The position numbers and the translations under genes were made by a program. Below the pieces are notes generated by a model that was given only the letters and a program-made list of their open reading frames with translations, searched no databases and was not told the origin of the DNA. Positions 30,959-47,134 of a DNA stretch of 64,000 nt are shown here, piece by piece; the stretch's first letter is position 1, and every line of letters begins with the position of its first letter. The stretch is from positions 2,679-66,678 of the forward strand of contig JBJEXX010000111.1 in NCBI GenBank assembly GCA_051886215.1, given 5' to 3'. The stretch is from Bacilli bacterium (GTDB taxonomy: Bacteria > Bacillota_I > Bacilli_A > RF39 > UBA660).

Positions 30959-32137
30959 CTATTTTATTAAAGTCATTGTGTCCATAGCAATCATAAGTTC
31001 TTCATCTGTTGGTACAATATATACTAAACAACTTGAATCATCTGTACTAATTTTTCTAAACTCACTTCTAACGTTATTCTTTTCTACATCCATTTTAATG
31101 CCTAAACATGCCAATTTTTCAATTATTTCTAAACGTGATGAAGGTGCTTTTTCTCCAATTCCAGCAGTAAAGCAAATAACATCAGCTCCACCTAATTCTA
31201 CATAATATTTAGCAATATAATCTACAACACTATTTACAAATTTATTATTTGCTAAAATACATCTTTTATCCCCAGCTTTTACACCATCTTCTATATCTCT
31301 GGCATCACTACTTTTTCCACTAATTCCAAGTAAACCACTTTTCTTATTTAAATCATTTATTACTTCACTTGCATTAAGTCCTTCTTTTTCCATTACATAT
31401 GGAATAATAGAAGCGTCAACATCACCACTACGAGTTCCCATTACAATACCTGCAAGTGGTGTAAATCCCATAGATGTATCTACACATTTTCCATCTTTTA
31501 TAGCAGTAACACTACCACCATTTCCTAAATGACAACTAATAATTTTTAAATCATCTCTACCTAATTCTTCACTAATTTTTTTAGTAATATATCTATGACT
31601 TGTTCCATGAAATCCATATTTTCTAACTCCATATTTTTGATACCAATCATATGGAACAGCATATAAATAGTTTTCTTCAGGCATTGTTTGATGGAATGCT
31701 GTATCAAAAACCGCCACCATTGGTACATTTGGTAATGCTTCCTTAAAAGCTTTAATACCTAAAATATGTGCAGGATTATGAAGTGGTGCAAAATCTCTAA
31801 TACTATCAATATAATTAATAACATCATCATTAATAAGTACAGATTCACTATACTTATCTCCACCATGCACAACTCTATGTCCTACTCCATCAATTTCTTC
31901 TAATGAAGAAATAATACCTAATGTAATTAACTTATCAAATAAAATATTAACTGCATCTGTATGATTTTCCATACTGATTTCTTCTTTTATTTTTTCACCA
32001 TTATACTTAATTGTATAAAAACTTCCCTCTATTCCTATTCTTTCAAATAATCCACTAGAAATAACTTCATTATTTACCATATCAAATAAACTATATTTTA
32101 ATGAACTACTTCCACAATTGATTGACATAATTTTCAT
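30959..32137 (-). CDS. ackA: Acetate kinase
   Basis: MSINCGSSSLKY N-terminus, HRVVHGG, FHGTSHRY, and canonical sequence over the full length. Confidence 0.97.
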   Translation of the reverse strand: MKIMSINCGSSSLKYSLFDMVNNEVISSGLFERIGIEGSFYTIKYNGEKIKEEISMENHTDAVNILFDKLITLGIISSLEEIDGVGHRVVHGGDKYSESVLINDDVINYIDSIRDFAPLHNPAHILGIKAFKEALPNVPMVAVFDTAFHQTMPEENYLYAVPYDWYQKYGVRKYGFHGTSHRYITKKISEELGRDDLKIISCHLGNGGSVTAIKDGKCVDTSMGFTPLAGIVMGTRSGDVDASIIPYVMEKEGLNASEVINDLNKKSGLLGISGKSSDARDIEDGVKAGDKRCILANNKFVNSVVDYIAKYYVELGGADVICFTAGIGEKAPSSRLEIIEKLACLGIKMDVEKNNVRSEFRKISTDDSSCLVYIVPTDEELMIAMDTMTLIK

Positions 32138-40098: not shown

Positions 40099-40692
40099 AT
40101 GTCAAGATACACAGGACCAAGTAACAAACAAGCTAGACGTGTTGGTTTTTCAATTTTAGAAAATGGTAAAGATTTAAAACGTCCTTATGGACCAGGACAA
40201 CACGGAAATGCTAGACATGGTAAACTATCTAACTATGGTGAACAATTAAAAGAAAAACAAAAAGTTAGATTTATGTATGGAGTAAATGAAAGACAATTTA
40301 AGAAAACTTTTAAAGAAGCAGGAAAACTTGCTGGTAAACATGGTGATAATTTCTTAGGTTTACTTGAATCTCGTTTAGATAATTTAGTTTATCGTATAGG
40401 ATTTGCTTCAACTCGTCGTGGAGCTAGACAATTAGTTAACCACGGACACATAACTGTTGATGGTAAAAAAGTTGATATTCCATCATATAGAGTTAAACCA
40501 GGACAAGTTATTGGATTAAAACATAAAGATTTAAAAGTTGTTAATGAGTCATTAGAAAAAGTATTAAAAAGAGTTGAATTCATTAATTATGATGAAGGAA
40601 AACAAGAAGCAACTTACGTAAGAATACCTCAAAGAAATGAATTAAATGCTGATATTAATGAAGCATTAATAGTTGAATTCTATAACAGATAA
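40099..40692 (+). CDS. rpsD: 30S ribosomal protein S4
   Basis: MSRYTGPS.. N-terminus and an S4 domain ([27 protein letters not shown]). Confidence 0.97.
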
Positions 40693-40696
40693 TATT

Positions 40697-40727
40697 AAAA
40701 ACATCTTCAAAAAAGATGTTTTTTTTA
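40697..40727 (+). terminator. Rho-independent terminator of rpsD (shared with the convergent gene)
   Basis: AAAACATCTT-caaa-AAGATGTTTT followed by a T-run. Confidence 0.75.
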
Positions 40728-42017
40728 ATTATTTTTCAATTGTCCTTCAAAATTATATTCATTAATTAAAGTCACATAGTTATATTTATTACTACCTAAT
40801 TCTTTATTCTTAGAATTAGTAAAGCCAGCAACCAACAATTTGTCATTTTTAACAATTAAAGCTCTATAATAATCATTATTTTCATATGCATATTCATTTG
40901 TCCAATCCTGCTTTAAATCATAATCATATTTAGAAATAATTCCTTTGTAAATATAATCAACAAAAAGAGAATCTTTTTTACCTTCTTTTTTAGCAGAATC
41001 ACCTACCAAATATAATTTATTATTATAACTTATAATATCATTCCAAATAGAATAATCTTCCTCTTTATATGTAATTTCATTTATCTTTTTACCAGATAAA
41101 TCATATTTAACAATAGTTGCTTTTTCTGTAATCTTTTTATCCTCTTCTTTAGTCTTAGAACATACAGTAAATATATTATTATCTGCATATACTAGTGAAG
41201 TAAAACCACTTTTATTTACATCTTCATATTCAATATTCATCTTTTCATTAAGTTCTTTATCTAAAGATATTAATATAGCTTTTTCAGATGAAGAACTTCC
41301 AACTACATAATACATATCATCTATTTTGATTATATCATTAAAAGAACCAGATTTATTAGAAGCAAAACGATTTGTTTTTAATACTTTACCAGATAAATCA
41401 TACTTAACAATAATAGCTCCACCTTTTTCTTCATTTCCAATAACATCACTTTCATAAATACTACTACCAACTACAATAATAGTATCATTGTCAATTAATA
41501 AACTTTTAAAGTAAGAATTATCTAACTCCTTATATGTTTTATCCCAAATAACTTTACCATCTTTATCAAATTTAACAATCAAAGCATCTTTAAGACCTGA
41601 TTTATGTTGTTTTTCAGTACTTTCTACTGCACCAACAACTATATAACCATCACTTACTTCAATTGCATCATAAAATACACTTCTATAATTTTTATCATAT
41701 TTAAATTCTTTAACTAAATTATTATTATCATCATAAATAGCAACTTTACCAGATTCTTTATCAAGTTTTTCATTTATCTCGCTATTAGAAAAATCACTAC
41801 TACCAACAACAATATAACCATTGTCTAAATTAATTATTTTTTGAGCTAAATCAATATTAAAATCTTTATTTTTAGTAAGCACTAAATATCCAAACCAGAT
41901 AAATTCTAATATTACAATAGCAATCCCGATAAAACATATATATTTAAGAACTTGAAATACTTTATCTTTTTCATGTTCTTTTTTATTTTTTAGCTTCTTA
42001 TAATTAACTTTCTTCAT
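40725..42017 (-). CDS. Membrane-anchored repeat protein (beta-propeller-like ~50-aa repeats)
   Basis: N-terminal TM, then about 7 repeats of the pattern ..D.Y(I/Y)VVG.S....(A/G).IVKYD..GK.. No family recognised. Confidence 0.5.
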   Translation of the reverse strand: MKKVNYKKLKNKKEHEKDKVFQVLKYICFIGIAIVILEFIWFGYLVLTKNKDFNIDLAQKIINLDNGYIVVGSSDFSNSEINEKLDKESGKVAIYDDNNNLVKEFKYDKNYRSVFYDAIEVSDGYIVVGAVESTEKQHKSGLKDALIVKFDKDGKVIWDKTYKELDNSYFKSLLIDNDTIIVVGSSIYESDVIGNEEKGGAIIVKYDLSGKVLKTNRFASNKSGSFNDIIKIDDMYYVVGSSSSEKAILISLDKELNEKMNIEYEDVNKSGFTSLVYADNNIFTVCSKTKEEDKKITEKATIVKYDLSGKKINEITYKEEDYSIWNDIISYNNKLYLVGDSAKKEGKKDSLFVDYIYKGIISKYDYDLKQDWTNEYAYENNDYYRALIVKNDKLLVAGFTNSKNKELGSNKYNYVTLINEYNFEGQLKNN

Positions 42018-42056
42018 TCTATCACCAATATTATTTTAACAAAAAAAGAAGATTTT

Positions 42057-42091
42057 TTAAACATATTTCACTAAGAAATATTTTTTCTTTC
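42057..42091. repeat. 35-bp exact duplicate of the tyrS 3' end (distal copy)
   Basis: TTAAACATATTTCACTAAGAAATATTTTTTCTTTC is identical to 45567-45601. A degenerate extension of ~10 bp carries a 3-nt indel. Confidence 0.9.
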
Positions 42092-42112
42092 TTCTTACTT
42101 TAAACATTTTAA

Positions 42113-43732
42113 TTATCTTAAACAGCCAAATGTAAATTGCTTTACTTTCTTTTTAGTTTCAATCATTTCTATTTGTTGTTTTCTAAAATCATCATCCAAA
42201 ATAGCAAAATCTAATATATTTATATTACTCATTAAAAAACCATTTCCTGTCTTTTTTAAATTTGGTAAATCTAATTTTTTTAATAAACAATTCATATACA
42301 GAAAAGAATCTCCAACAGTTTCTAAATTTGGTAATGATAACTCTAATAATGAATCATTACAACGTAAAAAATAATTATCTACTTTTTCTAAATTTGGTAA
42401 TTCTACCATTTTTATGTGTCTATTATGATATAAAAAATGAGCATCTATTACTTTTATATTTGGTAATGATAATTCTGTTAATGTTTGATTATAAAATAAG
42501 AAACTATTTCCTATAATTTCCAATTTTGGCAATAATAGTTTTATTAATGAACAATTATCATGCATAAAGAAATTACCAATTTCTCTTATATTTGGTAAAT
42601 TAAGCTTTTTTAATGCTTGATTATTAAATAAGAAACTGCTTTCTATAATTTCGACATTAAATAAATTTAATTCTAATAACGTATCGTTATAATATAAAAA
42701 ATAATCACCTATTTCTTTAATATTATTATTTTTATATCCTATAAGTCTATTTTGTTTATCTAAAGTAATGATAATATCTTCTCCGTATTTAGGAATAATA
42801 GTTATATCTTTTACCTTTTCCTTATTCTCTATTCTTATCTTACTTACATCACTTATCGTATCTAAAAAAGAATCCCCAATATATGTGTTATATAAAGATA
42901 ATTTTTTATTTATTAAATCTAAAACAAAATAATCAAATACAACATACTTTTCTTTTTCCAATCTATTCACTTGATAATTATCTATAATGATATTATTTGG
43001 GCAATAATATATATTATTTATTTCATAATTATACTTATAATATTTACCATCATTCGCTTGTACATAATTTAGTATTTCAAAACCATTACCTTTATGCTTT
43101 TGAACAATTCCATAAGCGTTTTCAAAACTTTTAGTTAAACCTGGTATGATATTATCTAAATTATTAGAAAATGTCGCATCTGGATTATTTACGGTATGAT
43201 TATATCTATTTTTTATTGATAAAGTATTTGTTTCATCCTTTGTAAATTGAATACTAATTACACTCGTCCCGTAGGCATCTTGCCTGTTTGGATTTTTAAA
43301 ATCTTCCCTTTTTATATTCTCTACATCTTTTTTAACCGCAAAGAAAACATAACAACTTTGTAATCGATTATCACTAAATGTACAAAGTTCTTCACCAGAA
43401 GCATAATACTTTTTAAAATTTTGTATTTCTTCTTCTGTAGTACATTCAAATAACTTATATCCTACATCACTTAAAAGTTCTTTAGGTGTTTTATTTACAA
43501 TAATTTCATTATTATTTTCAACAGCTACTAAACTATAAATATAATTTTTAAAATCACTTTCTAAAGTATTAGAAACAATATCATCATATAACATATGACT
43601 AGGATCAAAATGATCCATTAAAATCTTAGATAATAGTCCTTCTGTTTCTAAAAGACTAGAAAAGTTTTCTCGACAAAAATGCATCATATCTTCGCCATAT
43701 TTTTTCTTTATTATTTTTAAATCATTATTCAT
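42113..43732 (-). CDS. Cytoplasmic leucine-rich-repeat protein, paralog A (unknown N-domain + ~8 LRRs)
   Basis: C-terminal 22-23-aa repeats L.LPNL..IG..FL..N..L. No signal peptide or TM. Start at the ATG at 43732, 8 nt after GGGGA. Confidence 0.7.
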   Translation of the reverse strand: MNNDLKIIKKKYGEDMMHFCRENFSSLLETEGLLSKILMDHFDPSHMLYDDIVSNTLESDFKNYIYSLVAVENNNEIIVNKTPKELLSDVGYKLFECTTEEEIQNFKKYYASGEELCTFSDNRLQSCYVFFAVKKDVENIKREDFKNPNRQDAYGTSVISIQFTKDETNTLSIKNRYNHTVNNPDATFSNNLDNIIPGLTKSFENAYGIVQKHKGNGFEILNYVQANDGKYYKYNYEINNIYYCPNNIIIDNYQVNRLEKEKYVVFDYFVLDLINKKLSLYNTYIGDSFLDTISDVSKIRIENKEKVKDITIIPKYGEDIIITLDKQNRLIGYKNNNIKEIGDYFLYYNDTLLELNLFNVEIIESSFLFNNQALKKLNLPNIREIGNFFMHDNCSLIKLLLPKLEIIGNSFLFYNQTLTELSLPNIKVIDAHFLYHNRHIKMVELPNLEKVDNYFLRCNDSLLELSLPNLETVGDSFLYMNCLLKKLDLPNLKKTGNGFLMSNINILDFAILDDDFRKQQIEMIETKKKVKQFTFGCLR

Positions 43733-43807
43733 GATATTCATCCCCTAAAACTGCCTTTTATTATATAAGCAAACACTTTAAAAGTAAAGAACAAATGATA
43801 AAAGTCA

Positions 43808-43834
43808 TTATAAAAGGATGATTTTCATCATCCT
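43808..43834 (-). terminator. Hairpin terminator between the two LRR genes
   Basis: On the minus strand AGGATGAT-gaaa-ATCATCCT is followed by TTTTAT. Confidence 0.6.
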
Positions 43835-43920
43835 CATAATCAATTCATTTAGCAAACTTATTGTTCATCAACACTATTTGACAAAAAAATAAATTTTATA
43901 AAAATATATTTCTTCTAAAA

Positions 43921-43950
43921 ATAAATATATAAATATATAAATATATAAAT
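43921..43950. repeat. 8-bp tandem repeat ATAAATAT x3.75
   Basis: Read directly from the sequence. It abuts the stop codon of LRR paralog B. Confidence 0.85.
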
Positions 43951-45501
43951 CTATAGTTTTTTTTGCTTTACTTTTTTCTGCTTTTCAAATAAATTTTGGT
44001 GTTCTTTTACAAATCTACCTTTAATAACAGCATCTTCAGGAATATTTATACTTCTCAAAGAATCATTACATATAAGAAAATTATATCCTGCTTTTTGTAA
44101 TTTTGGTAAATCTAATTCTGTTAATTCATTATTATGAAATAAAAAACTATCTCCTATAAGCTCCGCCTTTGGTAATGATAATGACACCAAAACTTGATTG
44201 TATTCTAAAAAAAAGTTTCCTATACTTTTTAAATTAGGTAAATTTAACACTCGTAAAGCATCATTACAATTAAGAAAACTAGATCCAATCATTTCTAATT
44301 TTGGTAAATGCATCATCGATAATACATGATTATAAAATAAAAAAGAAGAACCAATTGTCTTTACCTTAGGCAATTCTATTTCCGACAATACTTTATTACA
44401 AGTCATAAAGTGGTCGCCTATCTTTTCAACGCTAAATAATTCCACGCTAGTCAAAAGCTCATTATAATATAAAAAACAGCGTTCTATTGTCTCTACATTA
44501 TTATTTTTATATCCTATAATATGATTTTCTTTATCTAAAGTAATTACAACAACTTCTCCTTCTTTTTCAGTTATATAGATTTCTTTTTTATCTTCTTTAT
44601 TTTCTAATTTTATTTTTTCTATATCCTTTATAGTATCTGGAAAAGAGTCTATTATATCATCATATAAAGTGATTTTCTTATTTACTAAATCTAATATAAA
44701 ATAGTCCATTATTATATATTTTTCTTTTTCATATTGTTTAGCTTTAAAGTTTTTAATAATAATATTATCTGGACAATAATAAATATTATCTATCTCATAA
44801 TTAAATTTGTAATATTTTCCTTCTGCCTTTGTATAATTTGTTATTTCAAAATCATTATTCTTGTATTTTTGTACAAGTCCATATTCTTTTTCAAAACTTT
44901 CTGTAAGCCCCGGAATAATATTATCTAAATTATTTGAAAATGTGGCGTCTGGATTGCTTACTGTATGATTGTATCTATTTTTTATTGATAAAGTATGGTT
45001 TTCATCTTTTGTAAACTGAATACTTATCACACTTGTTCCGTAAAGATCTTGTCTTTTAGGATTAGTAAAGTCTTCCCTTTTAATTTGACCTACATCTTTT
45101 TTAACCGCAAAGAAAACATAACAACTTGATAATCGATCATCACTAAATGTACAAAGTTCTTCTCCCGGAGCATAATATCTTTTAAAACTTTGTATTTCTT
45201 CTTCTGTAGTACATTCAAATAAATTATATCCTACATCACTTAAAAGTTCTTTAGGTGTTTTATTTACAATAATTGCATCATTATTTTCAACATCTACTAA
45301 GCTATAAATATAATTTTTAAAATTTCTTTCTAAATTTTCTTTTTTGATATCATTAAATAAATAATGGCATGGATGGAAATGTTCCAAAAGAAGAGTTTGT
45401 AATAATCCTTCTGTTTCTAAAAGACTAGAAAAGTTTTCTCGACAAAAATGCATCATATCTTCGCCATATTTTTTCTTTATGATTTTTAAATCTTCATTCA
45501 T
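43951..45501 (-). CDS. Cytoplasmic leucine-rich-repeat protein, paralog B
   Basis: Same architecture as paralog A. Start taken at MNEDLKII (45501) after GGGGTG. Confidence 0.7.
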   Translation of the reverse strand: MNEDLKIIKKKYGEDMMHFCRENFSSLLETEGLLQTLLLEHFHPCHYLFNDIKKENLERNFKNYIYSLVDVENNDAIIVNKTPKELLSDVGYNLFECTTEEEIQSFKRYYAPGEELCTFSDDRLSSCYVFFAVKKDVGQIKREDFTNPKRQDLYGTSVISIQFTKDENHTLSIKNRYNHTVSNPDATFSNNLDNIIPGLTESFEKEYGLVQKYKNNDFEITNYTKAEGKYYKFNYEIDNIYYCPDNIIIKNFKAKQYEKEKYIIMDYFILDLVNKKITLYDDIIDSFPDTIKDIEKIKLENKEDKKEIYITEKEGEVVVITLDKENHIIGYKNNNVETIERCFLYYNELLTSVELFSVEKIGDHFMTCNKVLSEIELPKVKTIGSSFLFYNHVLSMMHLPKLEMIGSSFLNCNDALRVLNLPNLKSIGNFFLEYNQVLVSLSLPKAELIGDSFLFHNNELTELDLPKLQKAGYNFLICNDSLRSINIPEDAVIKGRFVKEHQNLFEKQKKVKQKKL

Positions 45502-45566
45502 AATAACACCCCAAAAAGTGACTTCTATTATAAATGAAAACAAAAGAAAAGTAAAGAAAAAGAGGA

Positions 45567-45601
45567 TTAAACATATTTCACTAAGAAATATTTTTTCTTT
45601 C
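45567..45601. repeat. 35-bp repeat copy inside the tyrS 3' end (proximal copy)
   Basis: Identical to 42057-42091. Encodes KKKYFLVKYV* of TyrS. Confidence 0.9.
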
Positions 45602-46796
45602 CTCTTCTTATTACTAAGTATTTATTATCAATACAATCTTTTTTAGTAATTTGTTTATCTTCTAATATCTTCTCTCCATTTAAAGAAATACTTCCATTTC
45701 CAATAAATTCTCTAGCTTCTCTTTTACTAGAACAAATATTATTTTCTACTAATAAATCAACAAGTAACATATCATCATTTATATTACTAGATGGAACATT
45801 TTTAAACGCCACTTCTATTTCTTTAGAAGAAAGTTTAGAAACATCTCCTGAAAATAATATTTCACTTATTTCTTGAGCTCTTTTAAATGATTCTTCACCA
45901 TGTAAATCAGTAATTATTTCACGAGCTAAAGCTTTTTGAGCAATTCTTAAATGAGGAGCTTCATTATGTTCTTCCATAGTTTTAATTATTTCTTCTACTG
46001 ATAGGAAAGTAAATACTTTCAAATAAGATTCAACCATAGAATCATCAGCATTAATAAAGTATTGGTACAACTCATATGATGAAGTTTTATTTTCATCTAG
46101 CCATAAAGCGTTCCCTTCACTTTTTCCAAATTTATTACCATTTGCATCTAATATTAAAGGCATTGTAAATGCATATGCTTCTTTATCTTCAATTTTTCTT
46201 ATTAATTCTATACCAGTAGTAATATTTCCCCACTGATCAGATCCTTCTACTTGCATTATACAGTTTTTATCTCTAAATAATCTTAAAAAATCATATCCTT
46301 GAATTAATGTATAAGAAAATTCTGCATAAGTTATTCCGGTTTCTAATCTTCTACTTATAATATCTTTATTAAGCATATAATTTACATTAATATATTTACC
46401 AACATCTCTTAAAAAAGTTAAATAATCAAATTCCTTCATCCAATCATAATTATTAACAATCTCAGCTTTTCCATCAAATATTTTATCAACTATCTTTTTT
46501 ATACCTTCTAAATTCTTATTTAATTCTTCATATGAAATAATTTCTCTTTCCGCAGTTGGTCTAGGATCTCCAATAAGACCTGTCGCTCCACCAACTAATA
46601 AAATAGGATGATGTCCATATTTAGCAAGACGTTTTGCGGTTACTAATGATGAATAATGCCCAATATGAAGACAATCCGCAGTTGGATCTGTTCCCCAATA
46701 AAACGTAATTCTCTCATCATTTAATTTCTTTTCTATATCTTCTCCTGCAACATCTTTAATTAATCCTCTCCATTTTAATTCTTCAAAAAATGTCAT
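45567..46796 (-). CDS. tyrS: Tyrosine--tRNA ligase
   Basis: HIGH motif (LHIGHY), KMSKS-like KFGKS, and a C-terminal S4-like domain. Confidence 0.97.
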   Translation of the reverse strand: MTFFEELKWRGLIKDVAGEDIEKKLNDERITFYWGTDPTADCLHIGHYSSLVTAKRLAKYGHHPILLVGGATGLIGDPRPTAEREIISYEELNKNLEGIKKIVDKIFDGKAEIVNNYDWMKEFDYLTFLRDVGKYINVNYMLNKDIISRRLETGITYAEFSYTLIQGYDFLRLFRDKNCIMQVEGSDQWGNITTGIELIRKIEDKEAYAFTMPLILDANGNKFGKSEGNALWLDENKTSSYELYQYFINADDSMVESYLKVFTFLSVEEIIKTMEEHNEAPHLRIAQKALAREIITDLHGEESFKRAQEISEILFSGDVSKLSSKEIEVAFKNVPSSNINDDMLLVDLLVENNICSSKREAREFIGNGSISLNGEKILEDKQITKKDCIDNKYLVIRRGKKKYFLVKYV

Positions 46797-46804
46797 ATTA
46801 TCTC

Positions 46805-46985
46805 TCCTTTCAAAATAAAAAGACTTTAATCACAAAGACGAGTATAAACCCGTGGTACCACTTTGTTTCATAAAATCTTATGCACTCAAAACTTTAAAGC
46901 AGTTCTACTAATAAGCTCCATATATGTAACTTCATTATATAATAGTCTAGTTTACACCAACCACTAGATCTCTAAATTCTATACA
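46805..46985 (-). promoter_or_regulatory. T-box riboswitch leader (Tyr) of tyrS
   Basis: The minus strand has a stem I AGAGA element, a candidate specifier TAC followed by A (plus 46926-46928), the T-box sequence AAAGTGGTACCACGGG (plus ~46851-46866), then a U-tract before the SD. Confidence 0.85.
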
Positions 46986-47134
46986 TATAACTAATATATA
47001 TTTCATCGCTTTTATATATAATATGTTAACATACTAAAAACAGAAAGTAAAGTTTAAAAAACAACTAATATAATGTATAACCCTTACATAAAAAATAAAC
47101 TATGCTTAAATATTAAAAAAAATAAAAAAGAAGA

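Follow-up and report, generated by a model that had tools for sequence, protein, structure and literature searches.

Cis-mobilizable elements (CIMEs) are elements that have lost their integration and transfer genes and have kept attL and attR (PMC5704250), and they are one of several described systems, next to integron cassettes and tandem segmental duplications, against which the locus analyzed here can be set. This locus lies in a 64,000-nt stretch of DNA (referred to as the window) from a Bacilli bacterium (assembly GCA_051886215.1, contig JBJEXX010000111.1, positions 2,679 to 66,678), in which the 3' end of the tyrosyl-tRNA synthetase gene tyrS is present twice, in direct orientation, on either side of two paralogous leucine-rich repeat (LRR) genes. 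Comparison with relatives shows that the segment between the two copies is an insertion at the junction of tyrS and its ancestral downstream neighbour, h430. We read it as a fixed, old chromosomal insertion of an LRR cassette that probably arose in a one-off event, without a dedicated and still-present integrase; to this reading we assign a rough probability of 0.5. The cassette is apparently immobile, rather than an active mobile element.

The 35-mer TTAAACATATTTCACTAAGAAATATTTTTTCTTTC occurs exactly and in the same orientation at 45567-45601, where it closes tyrS, and at 42057-42091, 3,510 bp away, as an earlier note made from the letters of this DNA had reported. Without gaps, the two copies agree at 39 of 40 positions (42057-42096 versus 45567-45606), and at 41 of 44 when a 3-nt indel is allowed, in agreement with the roughly 10 additional degenerate bp described in that note. 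Homology past ~40-44 nt is not significant when anchored extension is compared with random genomic segments (p ~0.09 on the upstream side and ~0.12 on the downstream side). The minus-strand reading of the distal copy is ..IIKMFKVRRKKKYFLVKYV*, where tyrS has ..VIRRGKKKYFLVKYV*, and translation of the distal copy still gives ..VRRKKKYFLVKYV*. The genome is a metagenome-assembled genome (MAG) of 1.19 Mb in 120 contigs, 83% complete and with ~23% GC, and at up to 3 mismatches the 35-mer has only these two copies in the whole assembly, which disposes of the concern that it might be a dispersed repeat.

An AT-rich genome and a fragmented MAG are a setting in which a chance match or an assembly artefact could be suspected. 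Against this, none of 100 shuffles of the window gives even one chance 35-mer match, the same junctions recur in many independent public runs, and a decayed version of the repeat is present in a sister species. In the population data (Logan contigs, k=31), at least five independent runs show the 35-nt repeat as a unitig of its own, inside which contigs break; four contigs abut it in X8, X25, X9, X11 and X32. It therefore did not arise as an artefact in the assembly of the MAG. With independent assemblies showing the same junctions, a chance or artefactual origin was rejected, its probability being negligible.

The features of the locus are as follows, from the tyrS leader down to ezrA, with L049 to L052 denoting contigs of four relatives introduced below.

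46831-47015, minus strand: T-box leader ahead of tyrS, ordinary (89.7 bits, just below the Rfam gathering score of 93)
45567..46796, minus strand: tyrS, 409 aa (Pfam tRNA-synt_1b and SYY_C-terminal)
45550..45615, minus strand: predicted intrinsic terminator hairpin of tyrS (fold -19.7 kcal/mol, z -3.8)
45567..45606, minus strand: proximal repeat copy, the last 11 codons and stop of tyrS (exact 35-mer at 45567-45601)
42097..45566, minus strand: inserted segment of ~3.47 kb with two LRR transcription units, missing from the empty sites of L049-L052 and from more distant relatives
45527..45555, minus strand: promoter-like site of LRR-A, TTTACT-17-TATAAT, beginning 11 nt past the tyrS stop (10/12 match; homologous to the region upstream of LRR-B)
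43951..45501, minus strand: LRR-A, 516 aa from its ATG (Pfam LRR_5; the open reading frame (ORF) track reaches a TTG at 45543)
43742..43950, minus strand: A-B intergenic region, holding the next four features
43921-43950: (ATAAATAT)n tract
43837-43885: short dispersed repeat
43808-43834: predicted terminator hairpin
43760-43788, minus strand: promoter-like site of LRR-B, TTTACT-17-TATAAT (promoter scan)
42113..43741, minus strand: LRR-B, 542 aa (Pfam LRR_5)
42057..42096, minus strand: non-coding distal repeat copy, left over from the end of tyrS (exact 35-mer, 42057-42091)
42040..42102, minus strand: predicted distal terminator hairpin with outer stem AAGAAGA/UCUUCUU (fold -12.1 kcal/mol, z -2.2)
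42033..42061, minus strand: promoter-like site of h430, TTTAAA-17-TAAAAT with a TG extension (promoter scan; the -35 shares bases with the distal-copy stop codon)
40725..42017, minus strand: h430, a 430-aa membrane-anchored repeat protein and ancestral downstream neighbour of tyrS (homologues directly after tyrS in G013, G020 and L049-L052, and also in the sister species)
40099..40692, plus strand: rpsD (Pfam Ribosomal_S4 and S4)
39805->38096, minus strand: ezrA

Between the copies lie LRR-B, LRR-A and their intergenic region and nothing else, as ORFs and Pfam matches confirm for the two LRR paralogs that the earlier note had placed there. The packing is tight, with 5 nt from the repeat to the start of LRR unit homology, 11 nt to the LRR -35 box, and an LRR stop 8-16 nt before the distal copy.

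To establish the state of the locus before the insertion, we compared it with relatives. The set of species representatives includes no genomes of the window's genus. A TyrS protein search of ENA assemblies brought up closer relatives, the contigs L049, L050, L051 and L052, with tyrS at 85-90% amino acid identity. All four present the order tyrS stop, 39 nt, h430 homologue, rpsD and ezrA, with the insert absent. The distance from the distal-copy stop to the h430 ATG is also 39 nt in the window, and the spacers align with those of the empty sites (AAAATCTTCTTTTTTTGTTAAAATAATATTGGTGATAGAATG in the window, TCTTCTTCTTTTTTTTGTTAAAATTATATTGGTGATAGTATG in L049); deleting one repeat copy together with the intervening DNA recreates the arrangement of the relatives exactly. 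More distant relatives without an LRR gene show either tyrS-h430-rpsD-ezrA (G013 and G020) or tyrS followed directly by rpsD (G010, G021 and G017), and the neighbourhood of rpsD and tyrS anticipated by the earlier note is thus borne out in the contigs of relatives, ezrA included. The 3.5 kb segment is a genuine insertion bounded by the repeat.

The insertion is shared with a sister species, represented by Logan contigs of run SRR17182777 (L067 and L072), whose TyrS is 80% identical to that of the window. At its proximal junction (L067), the tyrS TAA gives way to TCCTCTTTTTGTTTACTTTT..., after which come a promoter and an LRR gene that begins with MNNDLKIIKKKYGEDMMHFCREHFS; the matching junction of the window is TCCTCTTTTTCTTTACTTTT, and common to both is the TAA followed by TCCTCTTTTT.TTTAC and then the LRR gene. 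At the distal end (L072), the C-terminal half of an LRR gene, closer to LRR-A (57% identity) than to LRR-B (41%), is followed after 8 nt by the decayed tail TAAGAGAAAGAGGAGATTTATTTCTTAGTGAAATCTATTCC, a T-run, a promoter, the h430 homologue, rpsD and ezrA, collinear with the distal junction of the window. Only 16 nt remain exactly identical between the two sister copies. Most simply, the window species and its sister inherited one insertion from their common ancestor. The perfect 35-mer of the window is hence not a fresh integration scar, because the event is common to a sister whose distal copy has decayed.

In flanking genes the sister is the closest relative of the window throughout, as seen in EzrA (86% identity for the sister versus 77-82% for L049-L052), ThiI (88% versus 78-82%), RpsD (96% versus 93-94%), h430 (64% versus 52-55%) and the YtxH-like protein (86% versus 72-80%). 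Only tyrS looks discordant. Over nt 1-675 of the gene, the window is 85-90% identical to L049-L052 and 72-80% identical to the sister, whereas over nt 676-1230 it is the sister that comes closest (81-89%). The sister tyrS (L067:5867-8230, against 45567-47100 of the window) is a mosaic, with an unusually divergent 5' two-thirds and a close 3' third, and the sister also carries an extra 280-aa gene between ytxH and the T-box. Foreign DNA probably took the place of the 5' region of the sister tyrS, through one crossover inside the gene, in which case recombination anchored in tyrS has imported foreign DNA at least once.

The repeated segment is predicted to be the intrinsic terminator of tyrS overlapping the -35 box of the h430 promoter, a property that the earlier note had not recognised. 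In the proximal hairpin, the outer stem pairs AAGAAGAGGA (codons K-R-R-G) with UCCUCUUUUU directly past the stop codon, and the inner stem pairs AAUAUUUC with GAAAUAU, so that the 35-mer makes up the loop and the inner stem; a U-rich run follows. The distal copy folds alike, with a left arm three bases short (AAGAAGA) and a right arm UCUUCUU. Since the arms match within each copy (AAGAGGA/UCCUCUU in the proximal one and AAGAAGA/UCUUCUU in the distal one), each copy appears to have kept a paired stem. The nested hairpin is predicted for the sister tyrS too (z -3.1), and L049, L051 and L052 have it at their empty sites (z about -2), giving folds of z -2 to -3.8 in both copies and four relatives. 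A simple consensus scan missed this terminator because its stem has few G-C pairs, and a consensus fold of the aligned tails recovered the inner stem only, since the outer stems use different registers.

Furthermore, the promoter-like sequence that has its -35 box at the stop codon of the distal copy recurs behind the real tyrS stop at the empty sites. The ancestral junction was very compact, with the hairpin made up of the last ~14 codons of tyrS and ~10 nt past the stop. The ancestral sequence of ~54 nt is therefore predicted to have comprised the tyrS end, its terminator and the start of the h430 promoter. With these signals overlapping, any insertion between tyrS and h430 must either break one of them or duplicate the module, which would account for the duplication having been needed and kept. 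The proximal copy would complete and terminate tyrS, and the distal copy is placed to terminate LRR-B and drive h430.

The two window copies are more alike than the age of the insertion would lead one to expect. Whereas they show 0 differences over 35 nt, the adjoining 39-nt spacer has 5 differences in 39 positions when two strains of the window species are compared (L073), and departs by about 25-30% from that of the sister. Given the depth of the split between window and sister, a neutral 35-mer should have changed, as the distal copy of the sister did. In addition, both window copies carry ..TATGTTTAA, where both sister copies, L049 and L051 have ..ATT.. (A), and a derived change common to the two window copies points to gene conversion. 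The window copies have probably been kept identical by this process, with the selected tyrS end as the likely donor. Homogenisation is not absolute, as shown by run X3, where a contig that runs through the repeat carries a private single-nucleotide polymorphism at 42074 in the distal copy alone. The LRR genes present a comparable pattern. At a DNA identity of 73-84%, LRR-A and LRR-B nevertheless contain stretches of 75, 51, 38 and 34 nt without a single difference, the longest being 43637-43711 = 45406-45480 and the other three lying on the same 1769-nt diagonal. These patches indicate gene conversion between LRR-A and LRR-B.

The cargo itself varies among strains. The inter-repeat segment is a single 1,834-nt contig, complete in X5, X9, X10, X11, X12 and X32 and in pieces in X20 and X29, with the same layout as contig L046: 30 nt of tail, TCCTC..., one LRR-B-like gene and 30 nt of tail. 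The LRR-B-like gene of most samples encodes 564 aa, has 93% nucleotide identity to LRR-B and is the sole gene between the repeats. LRR-A is missing from these one-gene samples, in which 43779 is joined to 45547 at a 12-nt match, TTCTTTACTTTT, with 1,767 nt skipped. The common state thus has one LRR gene, and the rarer state has two, as in the MAG. A further run, X27, contains an 844-nt contig that reads h430, one tail copy and tyrS (skipping 3510 with an overlap of 35), next to gappy LRR-B contigs of similar depth. With k=31 shorter than the repeat, this contig is ambiguous and can be either an empty-site layout or a de Bruijn shortcut through the 35-nt repeat. Depth ratios of LRR to flank contigs, considered as a possible indicator of empty sites or circles, vary from 0.6 to 1.4 between runs and even inside a single gene. 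Such variation is in keeping with mixtures of strains, and the ratios were dropped as uninterpretable.

LRR-A and LRR-B are BspA-type proteins (Pfam LRR_5, E 4e-8 and 2e-8) without signal peptides. Each combines a conserved N-terminal domain of ~330 aa, with invariant Cys, Arg, Asp and Asn positions, and a C-terminal part made of 22-residue BspA-type repeats. An AlphaFold2 model reached a mean predicted local distance difference test score (pLDDT) of 82.8, and its C-terminal half matches the BspA-type LRR structures 4fs7 and 4cp6. For the N-terminal domain, sequence searches of Pfam, NCBIfam, PADLOC and PDB gave no match, and the fold search hit the LRR half only. The family has more than 3,800 matches and is present in 9 of 61 sampled genera of the bacterial family, some members being pseudogenes, a patchy distribution that clearly speaks for gain and loss. 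None of six other single-copy LRR loci in other genera has flanking repeats of at least 15 nt at the gene borders.

Two further observations concern these genes and their surroundings. In GCA_947624535.1 (L047:2976-19764), at least 10 LRR-family genes stand in tandem downstream of cdaA-ybbR, in an array that runs off the contig; its genes are spaced by 23-49 nt with a conserved GAGGAGGTGTTAAA ribosome-binding spacer. Downstream of LRR-A, a sequence of ~48-80 nt (TTTGTCAAATAGTGTTGATGAACAATAAGTTTGCTAAATGAATTGATTA, then a hairpin) occupies 43837-43885 of the window and extends to ~43806. It is 96% identical to extreme contig ends of the same assembly (G000:C92:8634-8682 and G000:C37:1-48), is found at 2-3 times the depth of its neighbours in many metagenome runs, and has the appearance of the beginning (promoter, ribosome-binding site and first codons) of a gene or element that is multi-copy and was left unassembled.

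We also searched the locus for the hallmarks of mobile elements. In agreement with the earlier note, which had found no integrase inside the 3.5 kb, ORFs and Pfam revealed no integrase or transposase in or beside the insert. Terminal inverted repeats were rejected, since the candidates (I13/I14, 77-81% over 27-30 nt) are at the background of 97 such pairs in 7.5 kb, and the duplication, at ~40 nt, exceeds the short target duplications (2-14 bp) of transposons and insertion sequences. GC content is flat across the insert. A third, decayed tail between LRR-A and LRR-B, of the kind that accretion of units or unequal crossover would leave, was likewise rejected: the candidate reaches p 0.001 against random genomic segments only and ranks 5th-8th when set among 325 real intergenic regions. 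The search of the genome for integrases suggested in the earlier note returned 10 matches to the tyrosine-recombinase family PF00589, all on other contigs, and the 1.19-Mb assembly holds no third, attP-like copy of the repeat. The recombinases include sets of three adjacent genes resembling a recombinase-in-trio on two short contigs (G000:C62:203-2583 and G000:C67:120-2497) and single integrase-like genes on C78 and C120.

Taken together, these data lead us to favour a one-off event. The insertion would have occurred once, in the common ancestor of the window species and its sister, either through recombination or template switching at the hairpin, with a gene-sized fragment copied in and re-entry ~50 nt upstream, or through insertion, assisted by homology, of DNA that had a tyrS-like end beforehand. 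An insertion at so compact a junction could have survived only with the ~40-54-nt module on both sides. The copies would then have been homogenised from the selected tyrS copy in the window species and have decayed in the sister, with recombination between LRR units changing the cargo, so that most strains have one gene and the MAG has two; precise loss by way of the repeats could also occur on rare occasions. Several points weigh against this proposal. Duplications of a 3' end at both borders of an accessory segment are most often made by integrases, and the repeat has dyad symmetry (AAATATTT-CTTAGTG-AAATATGT) of the kind used by site-specific integrases. The MAG is 83% complete and encodes several tyrosine recombinases, so that an enzyme acting in trans is possible. 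The patchy LRR family suggests horizontal transfer, which usually needs a vehicle, and we found no donor locus or template-switch signature. Finally, the case for gene conversion draws on one clearly derived site and a rate argument, and the terminator and promoter functions are predictions.

The foremost alternative is that the locus is the remnant of a site-specific integrative element, similar to a CIME, or a minimal cassette mobilised in trans, the tails being attL and attR. The attP of the integrating element would have mimicked the 3' end and terminator of tyrS, and everything except the LRR cargo would later have been lost. Direct repeats of a gene 3' end that restore the ORF are the classic architecture of integrated elements, the empty site of congeners is precise and has one copy, and part of the dyad persists in the decayed sister copy (TATTTCTTAGTGAAAT, centred on the symmetry). 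The patchy cargo family, the recombinases elsewhere in the genome and the X27 contig with exactly one repeat copy would also be in keeping with such an origin, although that contig can be a de Bruijn shortcut. Yet no integrase, nor any other element gene or fragment, is present in the insert of any strain or of the sister, and there is no sign of the site having been used repeatedly by other elements or lineages: none of 17 relatives has a cognate element or a second tail copy near tyrS, and tail scans of IMG/VR, GTDB representatives and JGI metagenomes gave 0 matches. The exact TyrS protein is not on record elsewhere, and the literature searched contains no description of tyrS as an integration site. 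The flat GC content, the single pair of repeat copies and the bare borders of the other LRR loci also argue against this origin, as does an insertion that predates a speciation and has decayed in the sister. The earlier note had seen in the duplication the footprint of integration into the tyrS 3' end; of this claim the insertion bounded by the repeat stands, and nothing in the locus is specific to an integrase. As for its suggestion of a decayed island, cargo that abuts both repeats within 5-16 nt and fills nearly all the space between them, with no island debris, is hard to square with random decay of something larger. On balance we regard a site-specific origin as possible but doubtful.

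A tandem duplication, of the tyrS unit or of the tail plus h430, followed by replacement of most of the redundant copy by LRR DNA, would also place a tyrS tail on each side of the cargo. Duplications that carry gene tails have precedents in this clade. In the same genome, a 40-nt exact direct repeat (G000:C16:29662-29701 and 31781-31820) forms the core of a diverged second copy, ~350 nt long, of the 3' end of a 689-aa gene; paralogous 296- and 298-aa genes come next. In the congener L051 (L051:2468-5927, ENA ERZ28654795), two paralogous secreted genes of ~490 aa lie between ytxH and the tyrS T-box, with the last 30 nt of ytxH and a promoter repeated between them and a T-box leader fragment after the first copy. 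Moreover, the 16 nt past the tyrS stop (TCCTCTTTTTCTTTAC, 45551-45566), unique in the genome, equal the 16 nt past the ytxH stop in L052 (L052:9730-9746), just upstream of the tyrS promoter. This match may go back to an old duplication of the tyrS unit, but the 16-mer consists of the terminator right arm and a -35-like box, and the match may instead be convergent. At least two extra events would be needed, the insert holds no second tyrS body, T-box or h430 remnant, and in both precedents the tail lies between the paralogues and not outside them, all of which makes this origin unlikely. Each of the three origins, namely the one-off event that we favour, site-specific integration, and duplication followed by replacement, is compatible with the geometry of the locus. 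A related idea, which we consider quite improbable, is that the LRR unit (promoter and ORF) is a minimal cassette without an integrase that enters and leaves at the terminator hairpin by means of a trans-acting recombinase or template switching. The one-, two- and possibly zero-gene states would then represent ongoing cassette gain and loss at tyrS.

Whichever mechanism produced it, the locus offers a clean case of a streamlined (~1.2-1.4 Mb) Bacilli genome from gut and digester taking up an accessory gene at a point where a coding end, a terminator and a promoter overlap. The duplication also permits a dated comparison: decayed in one species and identical in its sister, it would be direct evidence that gene conversion over short tracts acts between repeats separated by 1.8-3.5 kb. 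The locus is variable among strains (one or two LRR genes, and perhaps none) in an organism widespread in pig gut and digesters, and it draws attention to a family of LRR proteins that is large, uncharacterised and apparently cytoplasmic. Should the repeats prove to be acted on by a recombinase, tyrS would join the sites used for integration as a new one, and the cassette would count as a mobile unit of unusually minimal make-up.

Compared with known systems, the repeat itself most resembles the overlapping terminator/promoter modules of compact Bacillota, in which the last codons and a U-run hairpin hold the next -35 box in the loop and are conserved in relatives; it differs in that the module is doubled, with a cassette placed inside. 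Like integron cassettes, the insert is built of one-ORF units, with an imperfect hairpin of ~60 nt within a few bases and a unit number that varies. Unlike them, it has no R''/R' cores (RYYYAAC/GTTRRRY), no intI or adjacent integrase and no attI, each unit has its own promoter, and no copy of the hairpin stands between units. With the tandem segmental duplications of C16 and L051, in the same clade, it has in common a short non-coding copy of a gene tail beside accessory paralogues and a tandem paralogue cargo that evolves by unequal recombination and gene conversion. There, however, the tail lies between the paralogues, whereas here both tails are outside the array and each adjoins its original neighbour, and the array is thus not the product of simple tandem duplication. 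The CIMEs at streptococcal ICE (integrative and conjugative element) and IME (integrative and mobilizable element) sites (PMC5704250) are alike in that a small accessory segment lies between direct repeats taken from the 3' end of a conserved gene, with the ORF intact, no internal integrase and an empty site. The present locus differs from them in that no element with a cognate integrase, related intact element, ICE or IME remnant or non-cargo DNA was found, that the repeat is a predicted terminator/promoter module, that the insertion is fixed in two species and that its excision is unproven. The locus is accordingly a direct-repeat-flanked genomic islet of a known general kind, and what would distinguish it is a repeat that serves, as we infer, as a multifunctional terminator/promoter module kept identical by gene conversion.

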